This document shows, one piece after another, positions 2,784 through 46,529 of a stretch of 64,000 nt of DNA. Source of the DNA: an uncultured Pseudomonadales bacterium (GTDB taxonomy: Bacteria > Patescibacteriota > Microgenomatia > UBA1400). Each line of letters starts with the position of its first letter. Within the stretch, counting starts at the first letter, position 1. The notes under the pieces were generated by a model. It had not been told where the DNA came from and did not search any database. It saw nothing but the letters and a program-made list of their open reading frames with translations. The DNA lies in the NCBI GenBank assembly GCA_964589815.1, contig CAZPUR010000003.1:42554-106553 (forward strand), given 5' to 3'. The translations under genes and the position numbers were made by a program.

Positions 2784-3122
2784 ATGGTTAAAAGACGACG
2801 TAAAAATTTTTTCCCAGCCTTAATTCTGATATTTTTCTTTTGGACGACCCTAATTCTAATGATTTTTTTTGTTGAACCAAGTTTAGTAAAAGACATCTTA
2901 ATTCCCGGTTTTTATTTACCTTTTTTTCTTAACCTGTTTTTGGCTTTATTTTTTACTTTAGCCATAATTTTTGGTCATTCCAAAAAAGGTTTTTTATGGT
3001 CTTTGGGAGTAATAATTTTTCTAATTCTACGTTTGTTTGATTTGGGAAATATTTTAAATATTATCTTAATAGCCGGTTTAATTTTTGCCCTTGATTATCA
3101 CTTTACCCAACGCCATAGTTAG
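2784..3122 (+). CDS. small integral membrane protein, unknown function
   Basis: ORF 2751..3122 trimmed to the ATG at 2784 (MVKRRRKNFFPAL). Three to four hydrophobic segments. Confidence 0.5.
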   Translation: MVKRRRKNFFPALILIFFFWTTLILMIFFVEPSLVKDILIPGFYLPFFLNLFLALFFTLAIIFGHSKKGFLWSLGVIIFLILRLFDLGNILNIILIAGLIFALDYHFTQRHS

Positions 3123-3214
3123 GAATTGGGTTTTCATGGCTCCTTGATATATTAAGAATAATGTGATACTAATTTAATTGATTAAACCAACTTCTGCCCA
3201 GGAAAGGAATTTTA

Positions 3215-3577
3215 ATGCAAATCTCCAAAAATAGACTTAATCACCAGGTTAAGATACAAATTAGGAATATTTTTTGTCAGACTTTGGCAGATTTAAAAAG
3301 AAGAGGAGATGTAGAGATTTTTATCCGCGATTTTCTTAGTCCCACAGAACAGTCGGTGCTGACCAAACGGTTGGCCATTGCCATGTATTTAGAGAAGGGT
3401 CGTTCCTATGAGCAAATAAAGTCAACTTTGAAAGTTTCTTCAGCCACGATTGCCAATGTAGATAAGATGATGAATGAGAAAAGTGAAGGTTTTGTTTTAG
3501 CTTTACGCCGGATCGAAGCCGAAGAATGGGCCGACAAACTGACGAAAAGGATTACAGGTTTTCTTAAAAAGCCTTAA
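3215..3577 (+). CDS. TrpR-like YerC/YecD-family DNA-binding protein
   Basis: LSPTEQSVLTKRLAIAMYLEKGRSYEQIKSTLKVSSATIANV matches the YerC/YecD HTH pattern. Confidence 0.7.
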   Translation: MQISKNRLNHQVKIQIRNIFCQTLADLKRRGDVEIFIRDFLSPTEQSVLTKRLAIAMYLEKGRSYEQIKSTLKVSSATIANVDKMMNEKSEGFVLALRRIEAEEWADKLTKRITGFLKKP

Positions 3578-3604
3578 TTAGTTAAACTTCTTTTTTTTCT
3601 CCTC

Positions 3605-3631
3605 GTCATTCCGGATTTGGTCCGGAATGAC
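3605..3631. repeat. GTCATTCC-type hairpin repeat (GTCATTCCGGA-TTTGG-TCCGGAATGAC)
   Basis: Perfect 11-bp stem read directly. Related GTCATYC hairpins at 26893, 38718, 39795 and 45578. Confidence 0.8.
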
Positions 3632-3655
3632 AAAAGGTTTCTGTCTTGATAAAAT
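3627..3655 (+). promoter_or_regulatory. putative metG promoter (-35 ATGACA, 17 nt, extended -10 TGaTAAAAT)
   Basis: -35 lies in the 3' arm of the hairpin. -10 at 3650-3655, only 9 nt before the ATG at 3665 (very short leader). Confidence 0.5.
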
Positions 3656-3664
3656 ATCCTTACG

Positions 3665-5128
3665 ATGACTAAAAAATTTTATATTACTGCTGCTATTCCT
3701 TATGTTAATGCCGCGCCCCATATTGGACATACCTTAGAGTTTGTTCAGGCTGATGTGATGGCACGCTATCATGAATTATTGGGAGAAGAGGTAATTTTTT
3801 TATCTGGAGCTGATGAAAATGCTCAAAAGAATGTCCAAGCCGCTAAAGAAAACAATACTACTCCTAAAAAATGGTGTGATATTAATTCACAAAAATTTTT
3901 CAATCTTAAAGAGCTTCTTAATTTAACTAATAATTTTGTCTTTCAAAGAGCAACTGATAAGAAACATCACCACGCCTCACAAAAATTATGGCAACTTTGT
4001 AAAAAAGAAGATATCGAGCCTAGAAAATATAAAGGTCTATATTGTGTTGGTTGTGAAGAATTCAAAACAAACAAAGATTTAATTAAAGGCAGGTGTCCAG
4101 AACACCCGAATGAAAATCTTGAAAAAGTTGAAGAAGAAAACTATTTTTTTAAACTTACTCATTACCAAACTTTTTTAAAAGACTTAATCTGTAATGATAA
4201 ACTAGAGATTATTCCTGAGCAAAGAAAAAATGAGGTCTTGTCTTTTATAGAGCTTGGTTTAAAAGATTTTAGCATTTCCAGGTCAGCTAAGCGTATGGGT
4301 GGTTGGGGAATTCCTGTCCCTGGCGACCCCTCTCAAGTAATGTATGTTTGGTTTGACGCTCTCAATGTTTATCAATCTGGTGTTGGTTTTGGTTGGGATG
4401 AAAAGAAATACCAAAAATGGTGGCCAGCAGACGTTCACTGTATTGGTAAAGGGATTCTTCGCTTTCATGCTATCTATTGGCCAGCGATTTTAAAATCAGC
4501 CGGTCTAAAATTGCCAAAAAAGATTTTTGTCCATGGTTACTTAACCATTGAAGGCCAAAAAATTTCTAAAAGCCTAGGGAATGTGATTAATCCTGAAGAC
4601 GTAGTGGAAAAATATGGTACAGATGCTTTACGCTACTTTTTATTAAAAACAATTCATCCTTATCAGGATGGAGATTTTAGTTGGAAGCTTTTTAAAGAAG
4701 TTTACAATGCTGATTTGGCTAATGGGATTGGGAATTTAATACAACGAGTTGCTAAATTAGCAGAAAAAGTTGATTTAAGGAATTTTAAAAGAATAGCTTG
4801 GAAGGATTCTAGTTTAGGATTAGGGGTGCGTACTGTTATTAATCTTTTTGAGTTCCATACTGCCCTTGGTCTTATCTGGGAACAGATTACTAAATTAGAT
4901 AAATATATAGATACTACTAAACCGTGGGGAAAAGAAGGTAATGAATTGAAAAAGCTTTTACAAAAACCAATTGAGCAACTTTTGGAGATTGCTTATTTAT
5001 TAAAACCCTTTTTACCAGCCACAGCAGAGAAAATTGAAAAGATCTTTATCCCGCACCAAAAAGGTACGGGACAAGCTGCTAGCGAGATTAAAGCCCCTCA
5101 AAAACCCCTCTTTCCCCGTTTAAAATAA
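3665..5128 (+). CDS. metG: methionine--tRNA ligase
   Basis: N-terminus YITAAIPYVNAAPHIGH (HIGH motif) and KISKSLGN (KMSKS motif). Confidence 0.95.
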   Translation: MTKKFYITAAIPYVNAAPHIGHTLEFVQADVMARYHELLGEEVIFLSGADENAQKNVQAAKENNTTPKKWCDINSQKFFNLKELLNLTNNFVFQRATDKKHHHASQKLWQLCKKEDIEPRKYKGLYCVGCEEFKTNKDLIKGRCPEHPNENLEKVEEENYFFKLTHYQTFLKDLICNDKLEIIPEQRKNEVLSFIELGLKDFSISRSAKRMGGWGIPVPGDPSQVMYVWFDALNVYQSGVGFGWDEKKYQKWWPADVHCIGKGILRFHAIYWPAILKSAGLKLPKKIFVHGYLTIEGQKISKSLGNVINPEDVVEKYGTDALRYFLLKTIHPYQDGDFSWKLFKEVYNADLANGIGNLIQRVAKLAEKVDLRNFKRIAWKDSSLGLGVRTVINLFEFHTALGLIWEQITKLDKYIDTTKPWGKEGNELKKLLQKPIEQLLEIAYLLKPFLPATAEKIEKIFIPHQKGTGQAASEIKAPQKPLFPRLK

Positions 5129-13642: not shown

Positions 13643-13651
13643 TGTTAAAAT
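13643..13651 (+). promoter_or_regulatory. extended -10 element TGTTAAAAT upstream of the GIY-YIG/tRNA-Cys unit
   Basis: Read directly. Ends 12 nt before the upstream copy of the tRNA 5' segment. Confidence 0.45.
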
Positions 13652-13733
13652 AAGGCTATTAAGTGGCCTAGTGGTCTGGCAAAGCCAGATCTGGCTCTTG
13701 CCAGACGAAGTGATCCTGTTAGAATTAATTTTA

Positions 13734-13985
13734 ATGTTTTATGTTTATGTTTTGAAAAGTCGCACTAATGGAGATATTTACGTTGGTTACTCAAGAGATT
13801 TAAGGACAAGGATTGATGCACACAACAAAGGTAAAGTAAAATCAACTAAAGCTTATAAACCCTGGATACTGGTTTATTATGAAGCTTATAAAGGTAAAAA
13901 AGACGCTACCAAACGAGAGAAAGAGTTAAAATTACACGCGGCGAAGAAATTGTTAATCGAACATCTAAAAGAAAGTCTTAAGTAA
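13734..13985 (+). CDS. small GIY-YIG nuclease-family protein (URI domain only)
   Basis: MFYVYVLKSRTNGDIYVGYSRDLRTRIDAHN has GIY..YIG-type motifs plus a conserved R and KREKELK. The caller's GTG at 13671 lies inside hairpins. Confidence 0.8.
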   Translation: MFYVYVLKSRTNGDIYVGYSRDLRTRIDAHNKGKVKSTKAYKPWILVYYEAYKGKKDATKREKELKLHAAKKLLIEHLKESLK

Positions 13986-13988
13986 CAT

Positions 13989-14061
13989 GGCCTAGTGGCG
14001 AAGAAGCTAACGCAGCTGTCTGCAAAACAGCTATACGCCGGTGCAACTCCGGCCTAGGCCT
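13989..14061 (+). tRNA. tRNA-Cys (anticodon GCA), atypical D- and T-loops
   Basis: Manual cloverleaf: acceptor GGCCTAG/CTAGGCC, anticodon stem GCTGT/ACAGC with loop CTGCAAA, T stem GCCGG/CCGGC. T-loop is TGCAACT (G where U55 is expected) and the D-loop lacks GG. Confidence 0.7.
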
Positions 14062-14104
14062 CTTTTTTATAACCTAAGATAGTGGATAGGATTGTGAATA
14101 GGAC

Positions 14105-45304: not shown

Positions 45305-45565
45305 TTATCTTCCAATATTCTGGAGTAAATCATTAAACATATCTTCTTGCTGTTTACTGGTTTCCGAAACCGAAGAAACATTTTCCAAAATTTGCTGCGT
45401 ATTTTCCAGTTGTTTTTTCAAAGCCGGCAACACTTGGACATAAAAACCCCAAACACTGATGATAATGCTCAGAAAAATTAAAATTTTAAAAACCACGGCC
45501 AAGCGATACTGCCAGATTTGAATCTTCAACCACTTTTGCAGTAATTCCTCAGTTTCCAGCTCCAT
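45305..45565 (-). CDS. small membrane-anchored hypothetical protein
   Basis: ATG at 45565 is preceded by GAGGAGG. One TM segment plus a coiled region. The caller's extra 8 codons are repeat-encoded. Confidence 0.5.
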   Translation of the reverse strand: MELETEELLQKWLKIQIWQYRLAVVFKILIFLSIIISVWGFYVQVLPALKKQLENTQQILENVSSVSETSKQQEDMFNDLLQNIGR

Positions 45566-45577
45566 TTTTCCTCCTCT

Positions 45578-45602
45578 GTCATTCCGCACCTGATGCGGAA
45601 TC
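45578..45602. repeat. GTCATTCCGCA-CCTGA-TGCGGAATC hairpin repeat
   Basis: 8-bp stem; GTCATTCC family. Confidence 0.75.
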
Positions 45603-45648
45603 TATACAAATAAAATCCTCTAATAATAAAATAACCACTACCATTATT

Positions 45649-45657
45649 TGATATAAT
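45649..45657 (+). promoter_or_regulatory. extended -10 element TGATATAAT upstream of the GIY-YIG/tRNA-Pro unit
   Basis: Read directly. Confidence 0.45.
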
Positions 45658-45719
45658 AGAAGTATTGTCAATATTTTCGGGCGCCGCCCAGAGGGCTCTG
45701 CCCGGCGGGGCGTGCAAAT

Positions 45720-46001
45720 ATGGCATTTGTTTATTTATCAAAAAGCTTAAAAGATAATAAGAAATATATTGGTTCAACAAATAATTTACAAAGACGTATA
45801 AAAGAACATCAAAATGGTTTAGTAAGGTCAACAAAATATAGACGGCCGTTAATTTTACTAGGTTATCAGATTTGCAACGATGTTAAAGAAGCAGCTTTTT
45901 TGGAAAGAAAATATAAAAGAAGCCATAATGTTCTTGGGAGAGCAATACAAAGAGGGAGTTTTAGATTAGTTCATTCGGGGCGTGGTGCAGTGGTAGCATA
46001 G
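45720..46001 (+). CDS. small GIY-YIG nuclease-family protein; 3' end of the ORF runs into tRNA-Pro
   Basis: MAFVYLSKSLKDNKKYIGSTNNLQRRIKEHQNG... GIY-YIG-like core. The last ~9 codons overlap the tRNA, so the true stop and length are uncertain. Confidence 0.7.
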   Translation: MAFVYLSKSLKDNKKYIGSTNNLQRRIKEHQNGLVRSTKYRRPLILLGYQICNDVKEAAFLERKYKRSHNVLGRAIQRGSFRLVHSGRGAVVA

Positions 46002-46046
46002 GCGCATGGGGTGCGTCTGGCCCCGGTTCAATCCCGGGCGCCCCGA
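45976..46046 (+). tRNA. tRNA-Pro (anticodon GGG)
   Basis: Manual cloverleaf: acceptor CGGGGCG/CGCCCCG, D-loop AGTGGTA, anticodon stem GGCGC/GCGTC with loop ATGGGGT, T arm CCCGG-TTCAATC-CCGGG, discriminator A. Confidence 0.85.
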
Positions 46047-46052
46047 CAAAGA

Positions 46053-46529
46053 TTATATTATACCTAGAATAGGTAATTTAAACTTCTTCTTTTTCCACCT
46101 CAAATAAAGTTGAATCGTTTCCCAATGGTCAAAGGCCACTTTTTCTTTAGAAGGAATTTTATCCAAGTCAAACCACTTCACTTCACTTACTTCTTTATCT
46201 GGTTGACCTATCTTTTTAATAGCCTTGACTAAGTAGACGAAATCCACATTTTGCCAATCTTCTCCTTCTCTATAAGGCGTGTCCACGATTCTAAATAATT
46301 TGATTATTTTACCGCTATAACCGCTTTCTTCTAGGAACTCCCTCAAAACCCCTTCTTTTATTGTTTCATTTTGTTCTAAAAAACCACCGGGAAAAGCGTA
46401 TTTTCCGCCTTCTCTTAAATGATTAGCTCTTTTAATTAACAGCAGCTTATTATTGTTGACACAAAGAGCGTCAAAAACCACATGTCTTAGATGTGCCTTT
46501 GTTCCTGATTCAAACTGACAAGTAATCAT
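46053..46529 (-). CDS. NUDIX-family hydrolase
   Basis: Nudix box GGFLEQNETIKEGVLREFLEESGY. Confidence 0.85.
   Translation of the reverse strand: MITCQFESGTKAHLRHVVFDALCVNNNKLLLIKRANHLREGGKYAFPGGFLEQNETIKEGVLREFLEESGYSGKIIKLFRIVDTPYREGEDWQNVDFVYLVKAIKKIGQPDKEVSEVKWFDLDKIPSKEKVAFDHWETIQLYLRWKKKKFKLPILGII

Follow-up and report, generated by a model that had tools for sequence, protein, structure and literature searches.

A tRNA-Pro gene in a Patescibacteriota genome, probably occupied by a minimal GIY-YIG nuclease cassette that leaves the tRNA intact

The subject of this work is a tRNA-Pro(GGG) gene in a stretch of 64,000 nucleotides (nt) from an uncultured bacterium of the GTDB lineage Patescibacteriota (contig CAZPUR010000003.1, positions 42,554 to 106,553; this whole 64-kb stretch is hereafter called the window). 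To judge from related genomes, the 5' end of this gene carries an insertion made up of a short GIY-YIG nuclease open reading frame (ORF), a partial copy of the tRNA, and a 26-nt GC-rich palindrome that we call X. Several described systems share parts of this arrangement, the first being SegB, a protein of about 220 amino acids (aa) that includes a DNA-binding part. SegB of the phage T4 tRNA cluster is reported to be a site-specific enzyme that cleaves the tRNA gene region of a genome lacking SegB, makes 2-nt staggered cuts, and is preferentially inherited along with the flanking tRNA DNA (PMC2330249). This GIY-YIG gene lies among or next to tRNA genes, as in the window (PMC2330249). Unlike the cassette in the window, SegB lies between tRNA genes rather than inside one, is not known to come with a partial tRNA duplication or palindrome, and is a phage gene rather than a bacterial chromosomal one. 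A second precedent is provided by the mitochondrial mORFs with partial duplication of the target gene, found in atp6 of Allomyces macrogynus and in atp6, atp9, cox2, and nad3 of Glomus (PMC3630166). Similar to the window cassette, these combine an endonuclease ORF (GIY-YIG in atp9) with a replacement for the displaced part of the gene, the native fragment is left behind as a pseudo-copy, and the ORF may be in frame with the host gene and carry no separate stop codon (PMC3630166). In contrast to the cassette, however, mORFs target protein genes and duplicate the 3' end, whereas here a tRNA gene is the target and its 5' end is duplicated; moreover, mORFs encode full-size enzymes in an organelle, as opposed to a catalytic-domain-only protein in a bacterium.

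Palindrome X has described counterparts as well. In the REP/REPIN and RAYT transposase system, short palindromes are dispersed and the cognate nuclease gene is flanked by copies of them; RAYTs are HUH/Y1 enzymes, though, not GIY-YIG, and REPs are intergenic with no tRNA link. The Rickettsia palindromic elements are 100-150 nt long and, like X, are read through inside protein genes; they have no known enzyme. The mitochondrial GC clusters and double-hairpin elements are GC-rich palindromes that flank tRNA genes (PMC4478555, citing Yin 1981 and Paquin 2000), and they resemble X in being mobile palindromes of 30-50 nt in AT-rich genomes with short target duplications (PMC4478555). These clusters merge, nest, and transfer horizontally, and the nested palindromes described below resemble the merging seen in yeast mitochondria; a tRNA-Cys gene of the window carries a related element that is a double hairpin, again as in mitochondria (PMC4478555). 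Unlike the mitochondrial clusters, the elements described here are bacterial, 26-31 nt long, and tied to a nuclease gene, at whose junction with a tRNA fragment they lie.

As for the nuclease, the UPF0213 proteins BH0048 and EF2693 share the minimal size of the 93-aa protein and are the closest to it in sequence and fold, but they have no known tRNA or palindrome context and no known function. SLX1, annotated as a structure-specific endonuclease in its PDB entries, differs from the 93-aa protein in having a RING domain and an SLX4 partner. Finally, non-intron insertions encoding GIY-YIG proteins have been described in rRNA genes of bacteria of the Candidate Phyla Radiation (CPR) (PMC11270868). 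Those insertions share with the window cassette the host group and the choice of structural RNA genes as sites; they differ in that the genes are rRNA genes, and tRNA and palindromes are not mentioned in that report. Our full-text literature searches found no description of GIY-YIG/tRNA/palindrome cassettes in CPR.

The tRNA-Pro(GGG) gene is located at 45976-46047 on the plus strand, as are all cassette features given below, and is intact (ARAGORN call; Rfam RF00005 match of 52.4 bits). Its nt 1-9, CGGGGCGTG, read 45976-45984 and occur a second time upstream at 45706-45714, and a 93-aa GIY-YIG ORF (45720-46001) lies between the two copies. The frame of this ORF runs 26 nt into the tRNA, where a TAG stop codon falls on tRNA nt 24-26, i.e., the last 8 codons and the stop are supplied by tRNA-Pro nt 1-26. 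Upstream, an extended -10 box, TGATATAAT (45649-45657), represents the native tRNA promoter, a function assigned from the consensus only. It is followed by the first part of the left arm, CGGG (45678-45681), which corresponds to tRNA nt 1-4 at their original position behind the native leader; by X, CGCCGCCCAGAGGGCTCTGCCCGGCG (45682-45707; covariance-model score 54.7 bits, E-value 1e-8); by a duplicated GG together with the second part of the arm, GCGTG, tRNA nt 5-9 (45708-45714); and by a linker, CAAAT (45715-45719), that leads from the left arm to the start codon. The window allele thus has the order ttatttgatataatagaagtattgtcaatatttt, CGGG, X, GGGCGTG, CAAAT, ATG...ORF, CGGGGCGTGGTGCAG..., where CGGG + X + GGGCGTG is CGGGGCGTG interrupted by X after nt 4 and lengthened by a second GG. 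No Shine-Dalgarno sequence precedes the ORF, and its AUG lies at the foot of a predicted hairpin (RNA fold of 45664-45722: -26.5 kcal/mol, z -2.3).

The original prediction, made from the letters alone, had proposed a genuine GIY-YIG/tRNA cassette rather than a chance adjacency, with an ORF that lies between two copies of a short direct repeat taken from the tRNA 5' end and reads 26 nt into the tRNA, and with TGATATAAT at 45649-57; all of these statements hold. Dinucleotide shuffling of the 336-nt region upstream of the tRNA produced the tRNA's first 9 nt in 0/2000 cases, and for the tRNA-Cys gene discussed below, the corresponding 10-mer was likewise found in 0/2000; any shared 9-mer at all turned up upstream of tRNA-Pro in 73/2000 shuffles (3.7%). 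Across the whole window there are exactly two GIY-YIG ORFs, each paired with one of its only two tRNAs, and the layout recurs in dozens of loci elsewhere. The hairpin had also been noticed, with its CAGAG/CTCTG core, which is present; however, it does not lie between the two 9-mers as proposed but 5' of the first copy, overlapping it. The contiguous upstream 9-mer at 45706-14 is made up of the last CG of the palindrome, the duplicated GG, and tRNA nt 5-9, and the CGGG of the arm stands apart at 45678-81. Nor is the hairpin a cassette part enclosed by the repeats: X is a 26-nt element lodged in the left repeat, with exact copies in many CPR phyla and in contexts other than tRNA. Similarly, CGGGCGCC, which occurs at 45678-85 and 46030-37 and whose upstream copy had been noted as resembling the tRNA 3' end, is no relic of that end; the upstream copy consists of tRNA nt 1-4 plus the first 4 nt of X, a by-product of the insertion of X.

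Evidence for an insertion comes from relatives in which the site is empty. These were sought through homologues of the NUDIX gene that neighbors the cassette, and two loci, L117 and L118, carry NUDIX homologues 78% and 76% identical to that of the window. In L117, which is syntenic (S9, L13, L17), ttatttgatataatagaggtattgtcaataa runs straight into tRNA-Pro(GGG), so that TTATTTGATATAATAGAGGTATTGTCAATAA is joined directly to the tRNA; the block TTATTTGATATAATAGA(A/G)GTATTGTCAATA of the window is conserved there, immediately 5' of the uninterrupted tRNA-Pro. In L118, where the leader TATTGTCAATATTT is conserved too, ctatattgtcaatattt runs straight into a tRNA-Pro that differs by 1 nt from that of the window. 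In both, the leader that precedes CGGG in the window is followed by the CGGGG... of the tRNA. No GIY-YIG ORF was detected in L117 or L118 by hidden Markov model (HMM) search at E<=10, and no X by covariance model. Each has one tRNA-Pro with no upstream partial copy; two tRNA-Pro genes in ORF-free relatives would have spoken against the original prediction. Since the ORF-free relatives have a single tRNA and no repeat, the duplication of the tRNA arrives together with the ORF.

The site is therefore polymorphic for presence and absence in an otherwise conserved setting, and the window allele differs from the empty one by two additions: 270 nt that comprise the linker, the ORF, and the repeated tRNA nt 1-9, and 28 nt for X with its GG, which sit in the upstream tRNA copy after nt 4. 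Because the promoter and leader seen in the window run straight into tRNA-Pro in L117 and L118, without ORF, hairpin, or repeat, the window holds an insertion of about 298 nt within the first 9 nt of the tRNA-Pro gene. The empty sites also ruled out an explanation that we had considered for the window 9-mer, namely that it is a mutated relic of a junction like that of L001, with a palindrome end joined to the anticodon-stem strand GGTGCG. The sole gene of the insert is the GIY-YIG ORF and the repeat lies at the tRNA 5' end, which does not correspond to a tRNA-targeting integrative element with an integrase and att repeats at the tRNA 3' end.

Filled alleles at the same locus are found in L001-L004, where S4-rpoA-L17-L13-S9 ... 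NUDIX synteny is as in the window. The L001 ORF is 73% identical to the window ORF at the protein level, and the left arm in L001-L004 is a perfect copy of tRNA nt 1-36, with X in the anticodon loop, followed by nt 37-42. Ribosomal proteins are 70-76% identical in all pairs compared, but the NUDIX protein of the window is closer to those of the empty L117 and L118 (76-78%) than to that of the filled L001 (56%); for this reason, at least two gain or loss events are needed at this tRNA-Pro locus on the sequences compared. The locus looks like an insertion hot spot, because other genes sit immediately 3' of the tRNA in these relatives: L117 has an HNH_repeat (PF18780) ORF on the minus strand (2976-3710) beginning 4 nt after tRNA-Pro, L001 has a 457-aa ORF after tRNA-Pro (3409-4782), and L118 has a LytR_C ORF after it (2979-4280).

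The product of the inserted ORF is recognized by Pfam PF01541 with 53.7 bits against a cut-off of 22.6 (E-value 2.5e-14), and the GIY-YIG catalytic domain occupies residues 2-70 of 93. No further Pfam or NCBIfam domain was found in the 93-aa protein, which accordingly has a catalytic domain only and no DNA-binding or recognition domain among those profiles; the sole NCBIfam match, below threshold, was to the N-terminal part of group I intron endonucleases. Across 22 sequences, Y5, Y16, G18, R26, and H30 are invariant and E62 is nearly so. The ratio of nonsynonymous to synonymous substitution rates (dN/dS) between the window ORF and the L001 ORF at the same locus is 0.25, and from these sequence features, the nuclease gene is judged to be intact and under purifying selection. 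An AlphaFold2 (AF2) model (mean predicted local distance difference test score, pLDDT, of 89.9) shows the three-stranded sheet flanked by helices of the GIY-YIG fold, in the order E-E-H-E-H-H, with the tRNA-encoded tail (residues 87-93) disordered. In sequence and fold alike, the protein is closest to two UPF0213 proteins, BH0048 and EF2693, and to the nuclease domain of SLX1, the best matches being 1zg2 (E-value 1.8e-14) and Slx1 (7cq3, 4xlg); structural matches to the catalytic domain of I-TevI and the N-terminal domain of UvrC are more remote.

Palindrome X pairs into stems of 5 and 4 bp with a CC/CC internal loop between them and GGGC as the terminal loop; its GC content is 85%, against 37% for the window, where X occurs once. 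Two homologues of the ORF product, P0002 and P0008, have an N-terminal extension, GAAQRALPGG, which is translated hairpin DNA, and since these extensions encode it, the hairpin is conserved elsewhere. A variant, hpB (CTCCGCCCGTAGGGCTACGCCCGGAG), preserves the structure of X by three double compensatory changes, and in a model-based alignment of the palindromes, 93% of cells pair, compared with 24-47% after the partners have been shifted. When one genome per species was scanned for the exact pattern, X was retrieved in 78 loci, mostly in genomes labelled CPR/Patescibacteria and spread over many phyla, with a minority under other labels, and with up to about 16 exact copies in one metagenome-assembled genome. 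The flanks of these copies are mutually unrelated (77 distinct contexts) and include protein-coding frames, other repeats, and tRNA fragments, yet the palindrome is flanked as GG|X|GG in 71 of the 77. In three comparisons of an arm with an intact tRNA (the window, L001, and L057), the net addition was 28 nt, i.e., X plus the duplicated GG; relative to their own downstream tRNAs, L001 has this insertion in the anticodon loop and L057 has it in the D loop. X therefore has what is expected of a miniature palindromic mobile element: a target-site duplication with filled and empty sites, and many near-identical copies in unrelated contexts. The evidence for its cognate enzyme is positional, consisting of the link to GIY-YIG ORFs, the correlation with ORF clades, and the 2-nt duplication.

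X was found in both orientations and within protein genes. About 40% of the copies (~32/79) lie inside long open frames, defined as at least 150 aa with at least 30 aa on each side (L006-L083), mostly antisense and read as PAGQSPLGGA. In L016 (3949-3974) and L055 (516-541), X sits in a zinc-ribbon-like motif, CPKCG...FYGCSN, whose frame stays open, so that the net insert there must be a multiple of 3, as opposed to the 28 nt seen in tRNA fragments. In the genome JAUSJK01, X occupies a fixed position in a repeat of about 100 nt, ...CCAGAATCGTAGTTAA...AACGATCCTGGC[X]GATGCGTCC...GGACTTACCAGGATGAC, of which there are at least 16 copies (L014, L017, L026, L033, L035, L037, L040-L042, L047, L050, L062, L063, L066, L069, and L072). 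Nested palindromes were seen in L088 (1428-1485), L091 (1432-1489), and L103 (1114-1171), for example with the palindrome hpC in the loop of X. In L005 (3034-3062 and 3483-3503), a Shine-Dalgarno-like AAAGGAGG followed by a half palindrome stands between X copies, and the AAAGGAGG unit is present on both sides of the ORF-tRNA unit; in L123, there are three tandem repeats of a half palindrome plus CAAAACAA. The L005 and L123 repeats suggest recurrent rounds of breakage and repair at one spot, as far as can be read from their sequences. Some contigs with X and a GIY-YIG/tRNA unit are labelled "Gammaproteobacteria" or "Bathyarchaeia" (L007, L008, L020, L021, L024, L027, and others); L027 is identical to the bacterial ribosomal-operon locus L001-L004, and these labels are probably taxonomic mis-assignments of CPR genomes. 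Scanning viral contigs for both palindromes yielded no matches.

The second cassette of the window, at 13643-14062, follows the same plan around a tRNA-Cys gene, as the original prediction had proposed. An extended -10 box, TGTTAAAAT (13643-51), is followed by a left arm, GGCCTAGTGG (13665-74), equal to tRNA-Cys nt 1-10; a double-hairpin palindrome (13675-13705); CGAAG, equal to tRNA-Cys nt 11-15 (13706-10); an 83-aa GIY-YIG ORF (13734-13985; Pfam GIY-YIG, 64.2 bits); and the tRNA-Cys itself (13989-14062). The two nucleases were correctly described as diverged paralogues, at 36% identity. The Cys-type protein has 140 homologues and belongs to a family that is very widespread in CPR. In nine of nine Cys-type loci, which represent four lineages, tRNA-Cys lies 3-15 nt past the ORF, and these loci have upstream partial tRNA-Cys copies with covarying double-hairpin palindromes. 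The palindrome has the form TCNNGC-AGA-GCNNGA|TCTNGC-TCT-GCNAGA, followed by CAAAAC (tRNA nt 35-40) and then ATG; the NN dinucleotides, of which seven kinds occur, are complementary to each other in 47 of 70 pattern matches, whereas 1/16 would be expected by chance. X and the Cys-type palindromes share the core GGCTCTGCC. As an exact 15-mer, the palindrome of the tRNA-Cys cassette is absent from other loci, and its family is visible only through homologous Cys-type loci.

Recurrence was assessed on loci retrieved by a protein pattern (a 9-sequence subset), and not through the hairpin, together with the Cys-type loci, which gave 34 distinct ORFs. A same-strand tRNA starts between -60 and +80 nt from the stop codon in 23 of the 34, and a tRNA directly precedes or follows the ORF in 28. 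The linked tRNAs are Pro (GGG, TGG, and CGG), Cys, Ala, Trp, Thr, and Leu, to which the hairpin-selected set adds Val and Lys, and one ORF frame passes through tRNA-Gln; altogether, the ORF-linked layout was seen in dozens of loci and at least 8 tRNA species. The commonest offset is that tRNA U8-A9-G10 (TAG) serves as the ORF stop, so that L030, L052, L057, L075, L087, and L114, among others, have an ORF with no stop of its own that ends at these positions. The tRNA-Pro of the window has U8-G9-G10, and its ORF is in a different frame from those that end at U8-A9-G10. ORF clades track both tRNA identity (Pro, Cys, others) and palindrome family, and all tRNA-associated X copies in the sample have a GIY-YIG ORF within about 300 nt. 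A GC-island statistic was also computed upstream of the ORFs, with a control that is inflated by tRNAs.

Upstream of most ORFs is a copy of the 5' part of the tRNA, usually 100% identical to the downstream tRNA, which a GC palindrome splits in the D loop (after G18/G19), in the anticodon loop, or in the acceptor strand. On the 3' side of the palindrome follow another 5-12 nt of tRNA homology, a short AT-rich linker, and ATG. The palindrome always sits in the last GG run before the junction of arm and ORF (9/9 D-loop-type and 7/7 anticodon-type loci); with a random choice of GG run and loci taken as independent, the probability would be about 1e-6, a figure that is overstated because some of the loci are related. 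As in mORFs, a displaced fragment and a replacement flank the ORF and the target remains intact, both in the window and in relatives with arms of 9 to ~68 nt. The left arms measure 9, 12, 15, ~28, ~42, and ~68 nt, the last being nearly a whole tRNA, and this variation ruled out a fixed-length target-site duplication made by an ORF element. A staggered cut that leaves an X-containing duplicate on either side of the ORF would account for L005, but L101 does not conform to such a model. In the window and most loci, the left arm is identical to the intact tRNA, whereas in L054 and L005/L090 it represents an unlike allele. In L005, the acceptor strand of a right-hand remnant, CATCCCG, pairs with the left arm CGGGATG, which suggests that a resident tRNA was split there by an incoming ORF and tRNA. 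Mirror forms, in which a full tRNA is followed by the ORF and a 3' fragment, were found in L094, L089, and L107, and L067 has X in the anticodon loop of a full-length tRNA-Pro downstream of the ORF. Upstream of the Trp-linked ORF of L111 (1400-1497) lies a near-full pseudo-tRNA-Trp, reaching nt 68, with the hairpins CCGCCACAGGCGG and CCGCCTGAGGCGG, one in the D loop and the other replacing nt 37-53.

Two further features of the window lie just upstream of the cassette. A hairpin at 45573-45597, GTCATTCCGCAcctgaTGCGGAATC, stands immediately upstream of a small minus-strand ORF (45305-45589), and its counterpart in L001 (2915-2940), GTCATTCTGAActtgaTTCAGAATC, is kept through compensatory changes. 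On the minus strand at 45643-45671, a promoter-like TTGACA, 17-nt spacer, AATAAT (11/12 matches) overlaps the conserved leader TATTGTCAA, and the conserved block may be a divergent promoter region for the tRNA and the minus-strand gene.

Taken together, we consider it probable, on this sequence evidence, that a homing-type mobile nuclease cassette has settled in this tRNA-Pro gene and left the tRNA intact. The tRNA's own promoter would transcribe the arm, X, the ORF, and the tRNA as one unit. Processing by RNase P at tRNA +1 would cut off the stop codon, in the window as in the relatives whose ORF ends at U8-A9-G10, and the nuclease of the window would for that reason be translated from the unprocessed precursor only; this processing and the hairpin at the AUG would both limit its expression. 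Spread would be homing-like, with the nuclease breaking DNA in or next to the cognate tRNA gene and repair copying the occupied allele; homology for repair would be provided by the partial left arm on one side of the ORF and the full tRNA on the right. Because tRNA-derived homology flanks the ORF, any cognate tRNA gene could take up the ORF and keep a working tRNA.

Several points weigh against this interpretation. The case rests wholly on comparative anatomy, and it is difficult to see how a protein lacking a DNA-binding domain would home by sequence into a tRNA gene without X. The nuclease would also be expected to cut the intact tRNA gene beside the ORF, unless recognition depends on X or on a particular DNA structure. 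The link between nuclease and X is circumstantial, since the window has a single X and many copies elsewhere have no ORF nearby, and the left-arm lengths show no single insertion geometry. Finally, the divergence of the two paralogues in the window and the similar conservation of the ORF (73%) and the ribosomal proteins (72-74%) would equally fit long vertical residence or domestication.

The last of these points leads to the alternative that survives best, although we regard it as unlikely: the ORF would be a domesticated or long-resident host factor, for instance a structure-specific repair nuclease of the UPF0213 type co-transcribed with tRNAs, and the arms and palindromes would be old scars with nothing mobile today. 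The dN/dS of 0.25, an ORF identity near that of ribosomal proteins between the window and L001, the 36% identity of the window paralogues, the very wide occurrence of the family in CPR (with its 140 homologues of the Cys-type protein alone), and the fact that UPF0213 proteins are ordinary stand-alone bacterial genes are all in keeping with such a history. A long-settled gene does not readily account, however, for L117 and L118, which have the same promoter and tRNA and lack the ORF, or for left arms that differ between the window and L001 at the same locus. Arms that remain 100% identical to the local tRNA in most loci despite diverged ORFs, foreign-allele arms in L054 and L005, and exact 26-nt copies of X across phyla likewise speak against it.

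A second alternative, which we hold to be quite improbable, reverses the roles: the palindromes would be active mobile or fragile agents in tRNA genes, host breakage and repair would duplicate parts of the tRNA, the ORF and tRNA would be a passenger or rescue segment, and the nuclease would be blind to the palindrome. Mitochondrial GC clusters show that autonomous-looking mobile palindromes exist (PMC4478555), and the many X copies without an ORF, some 32 of 79 of them in long open frames, the nested palindromes of L088, L091, and L103, and the tandem half-palindrome repeats of L123 and L005 could all be understood in these terms. Left unexplained are the GIY-YIG ORF within about 300 nt of every sampled tRNA-associated X, the match of palindrome family to ORF clade, and the constant position of the palindrome in the GG run nearest the ORF.

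There is very little room for a decayed tandem tRNA duplication unrelated to the ORF or for a chance 9-nt match: the upstream copy in L111 is indeed nearly a full tRNA and a shared 9-mer somewhere in the region arises in 3.7% of shuffles, but the former is contradicted by the empty sites, where ORF-free relatives have a single tRNA and no upstream copy, and by the recurrence of the ORF-linked layout across tRNA species, and the latter by the absence of the tRNA prefix from all 2000 shuffles. The weakest candidate, with hardly any probability left to it, is an RNA-level element, either a tRNA intron (group I or bulge-helix-bulge) with a homing endonuclease gene or a split or permuted tRNA; in relatives, the palindrome does separate nt 36 from nt 37 of a tRNA copy, within its anticodon loop, and in L067 it is in that loop of a full-length tRNA-Pro, but an Rfam scan of 45500-46150 at E<=1 yielded tRNA only and no known RNA family for the hairpin (a gathering-threshold scan of the whole window matched nothing, although both tRNAs are present, and its null is thus untrustworthy), the ORF takes up nearly the whole insert and leaves no room for a ribozyme core, the downstream tRNA is complete and uninterrupted while the left copies are truncated (at nt 9 in the window), and X occurs in both orientations and inside protein genes.

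Returning to the occupied tRNA gene, a more tentative proposal concerns the part played by the palindrome. The SLX1/UPF0213-like nuclease might recognize the palindrome as a structure and cut a few nt from it, and solo palindromes might be mobilized by the same nuclease, an idea for which we have limited confidence; it is prompted by three features of the sequences: the constant place of the palindrome, its agreement with ORF clades, and the duplicated GG. The length of this duplication matches the 2-nt stagger reported for SegB (PMC2330249). A bolder version, less likely than not but with a substantial chance of being right, is that the minimal GIY-YIG protein and its cognate palindrome form an unrecognized bacterial mobile system. 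Such a protein would bind a hairpin or cruciform of 26-31 nt, cut with a 2-nt stagger, scatter solo palindromes (also in frame in protein genes), and place copies of its own gene in tRNA genes whose tRNA is restored in the process, in a manner resembling REP/RAYT or a transposon and spreading horizontally across CPR phyla.

The solution of partial duplication is known from mitochondrial protein genes, and as far as we found, the literature holds no example of it for bacterial tRNA genes. If the homing-type interpretation is true, a very small selfish element of about 300 nt would live in the tRNA genes of CPR, sparing its essential target by partial duplication and not by splicing. The widespread minimal GIY-YIG proteins of the UPF0213 type would gain a candidate biological context, and a 26-nt palindrome that is identical across phyla would rank among the smallest mobile DNA elements known. 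The nuclease and its substrate would form a pair open to direct test. For the annotation of CPR genomes, these cassettes yield pseudo-tRNA fragments, ORFs that overlap tRNAs, and short insertions in protein genes, all of which are liable to cause confusion.

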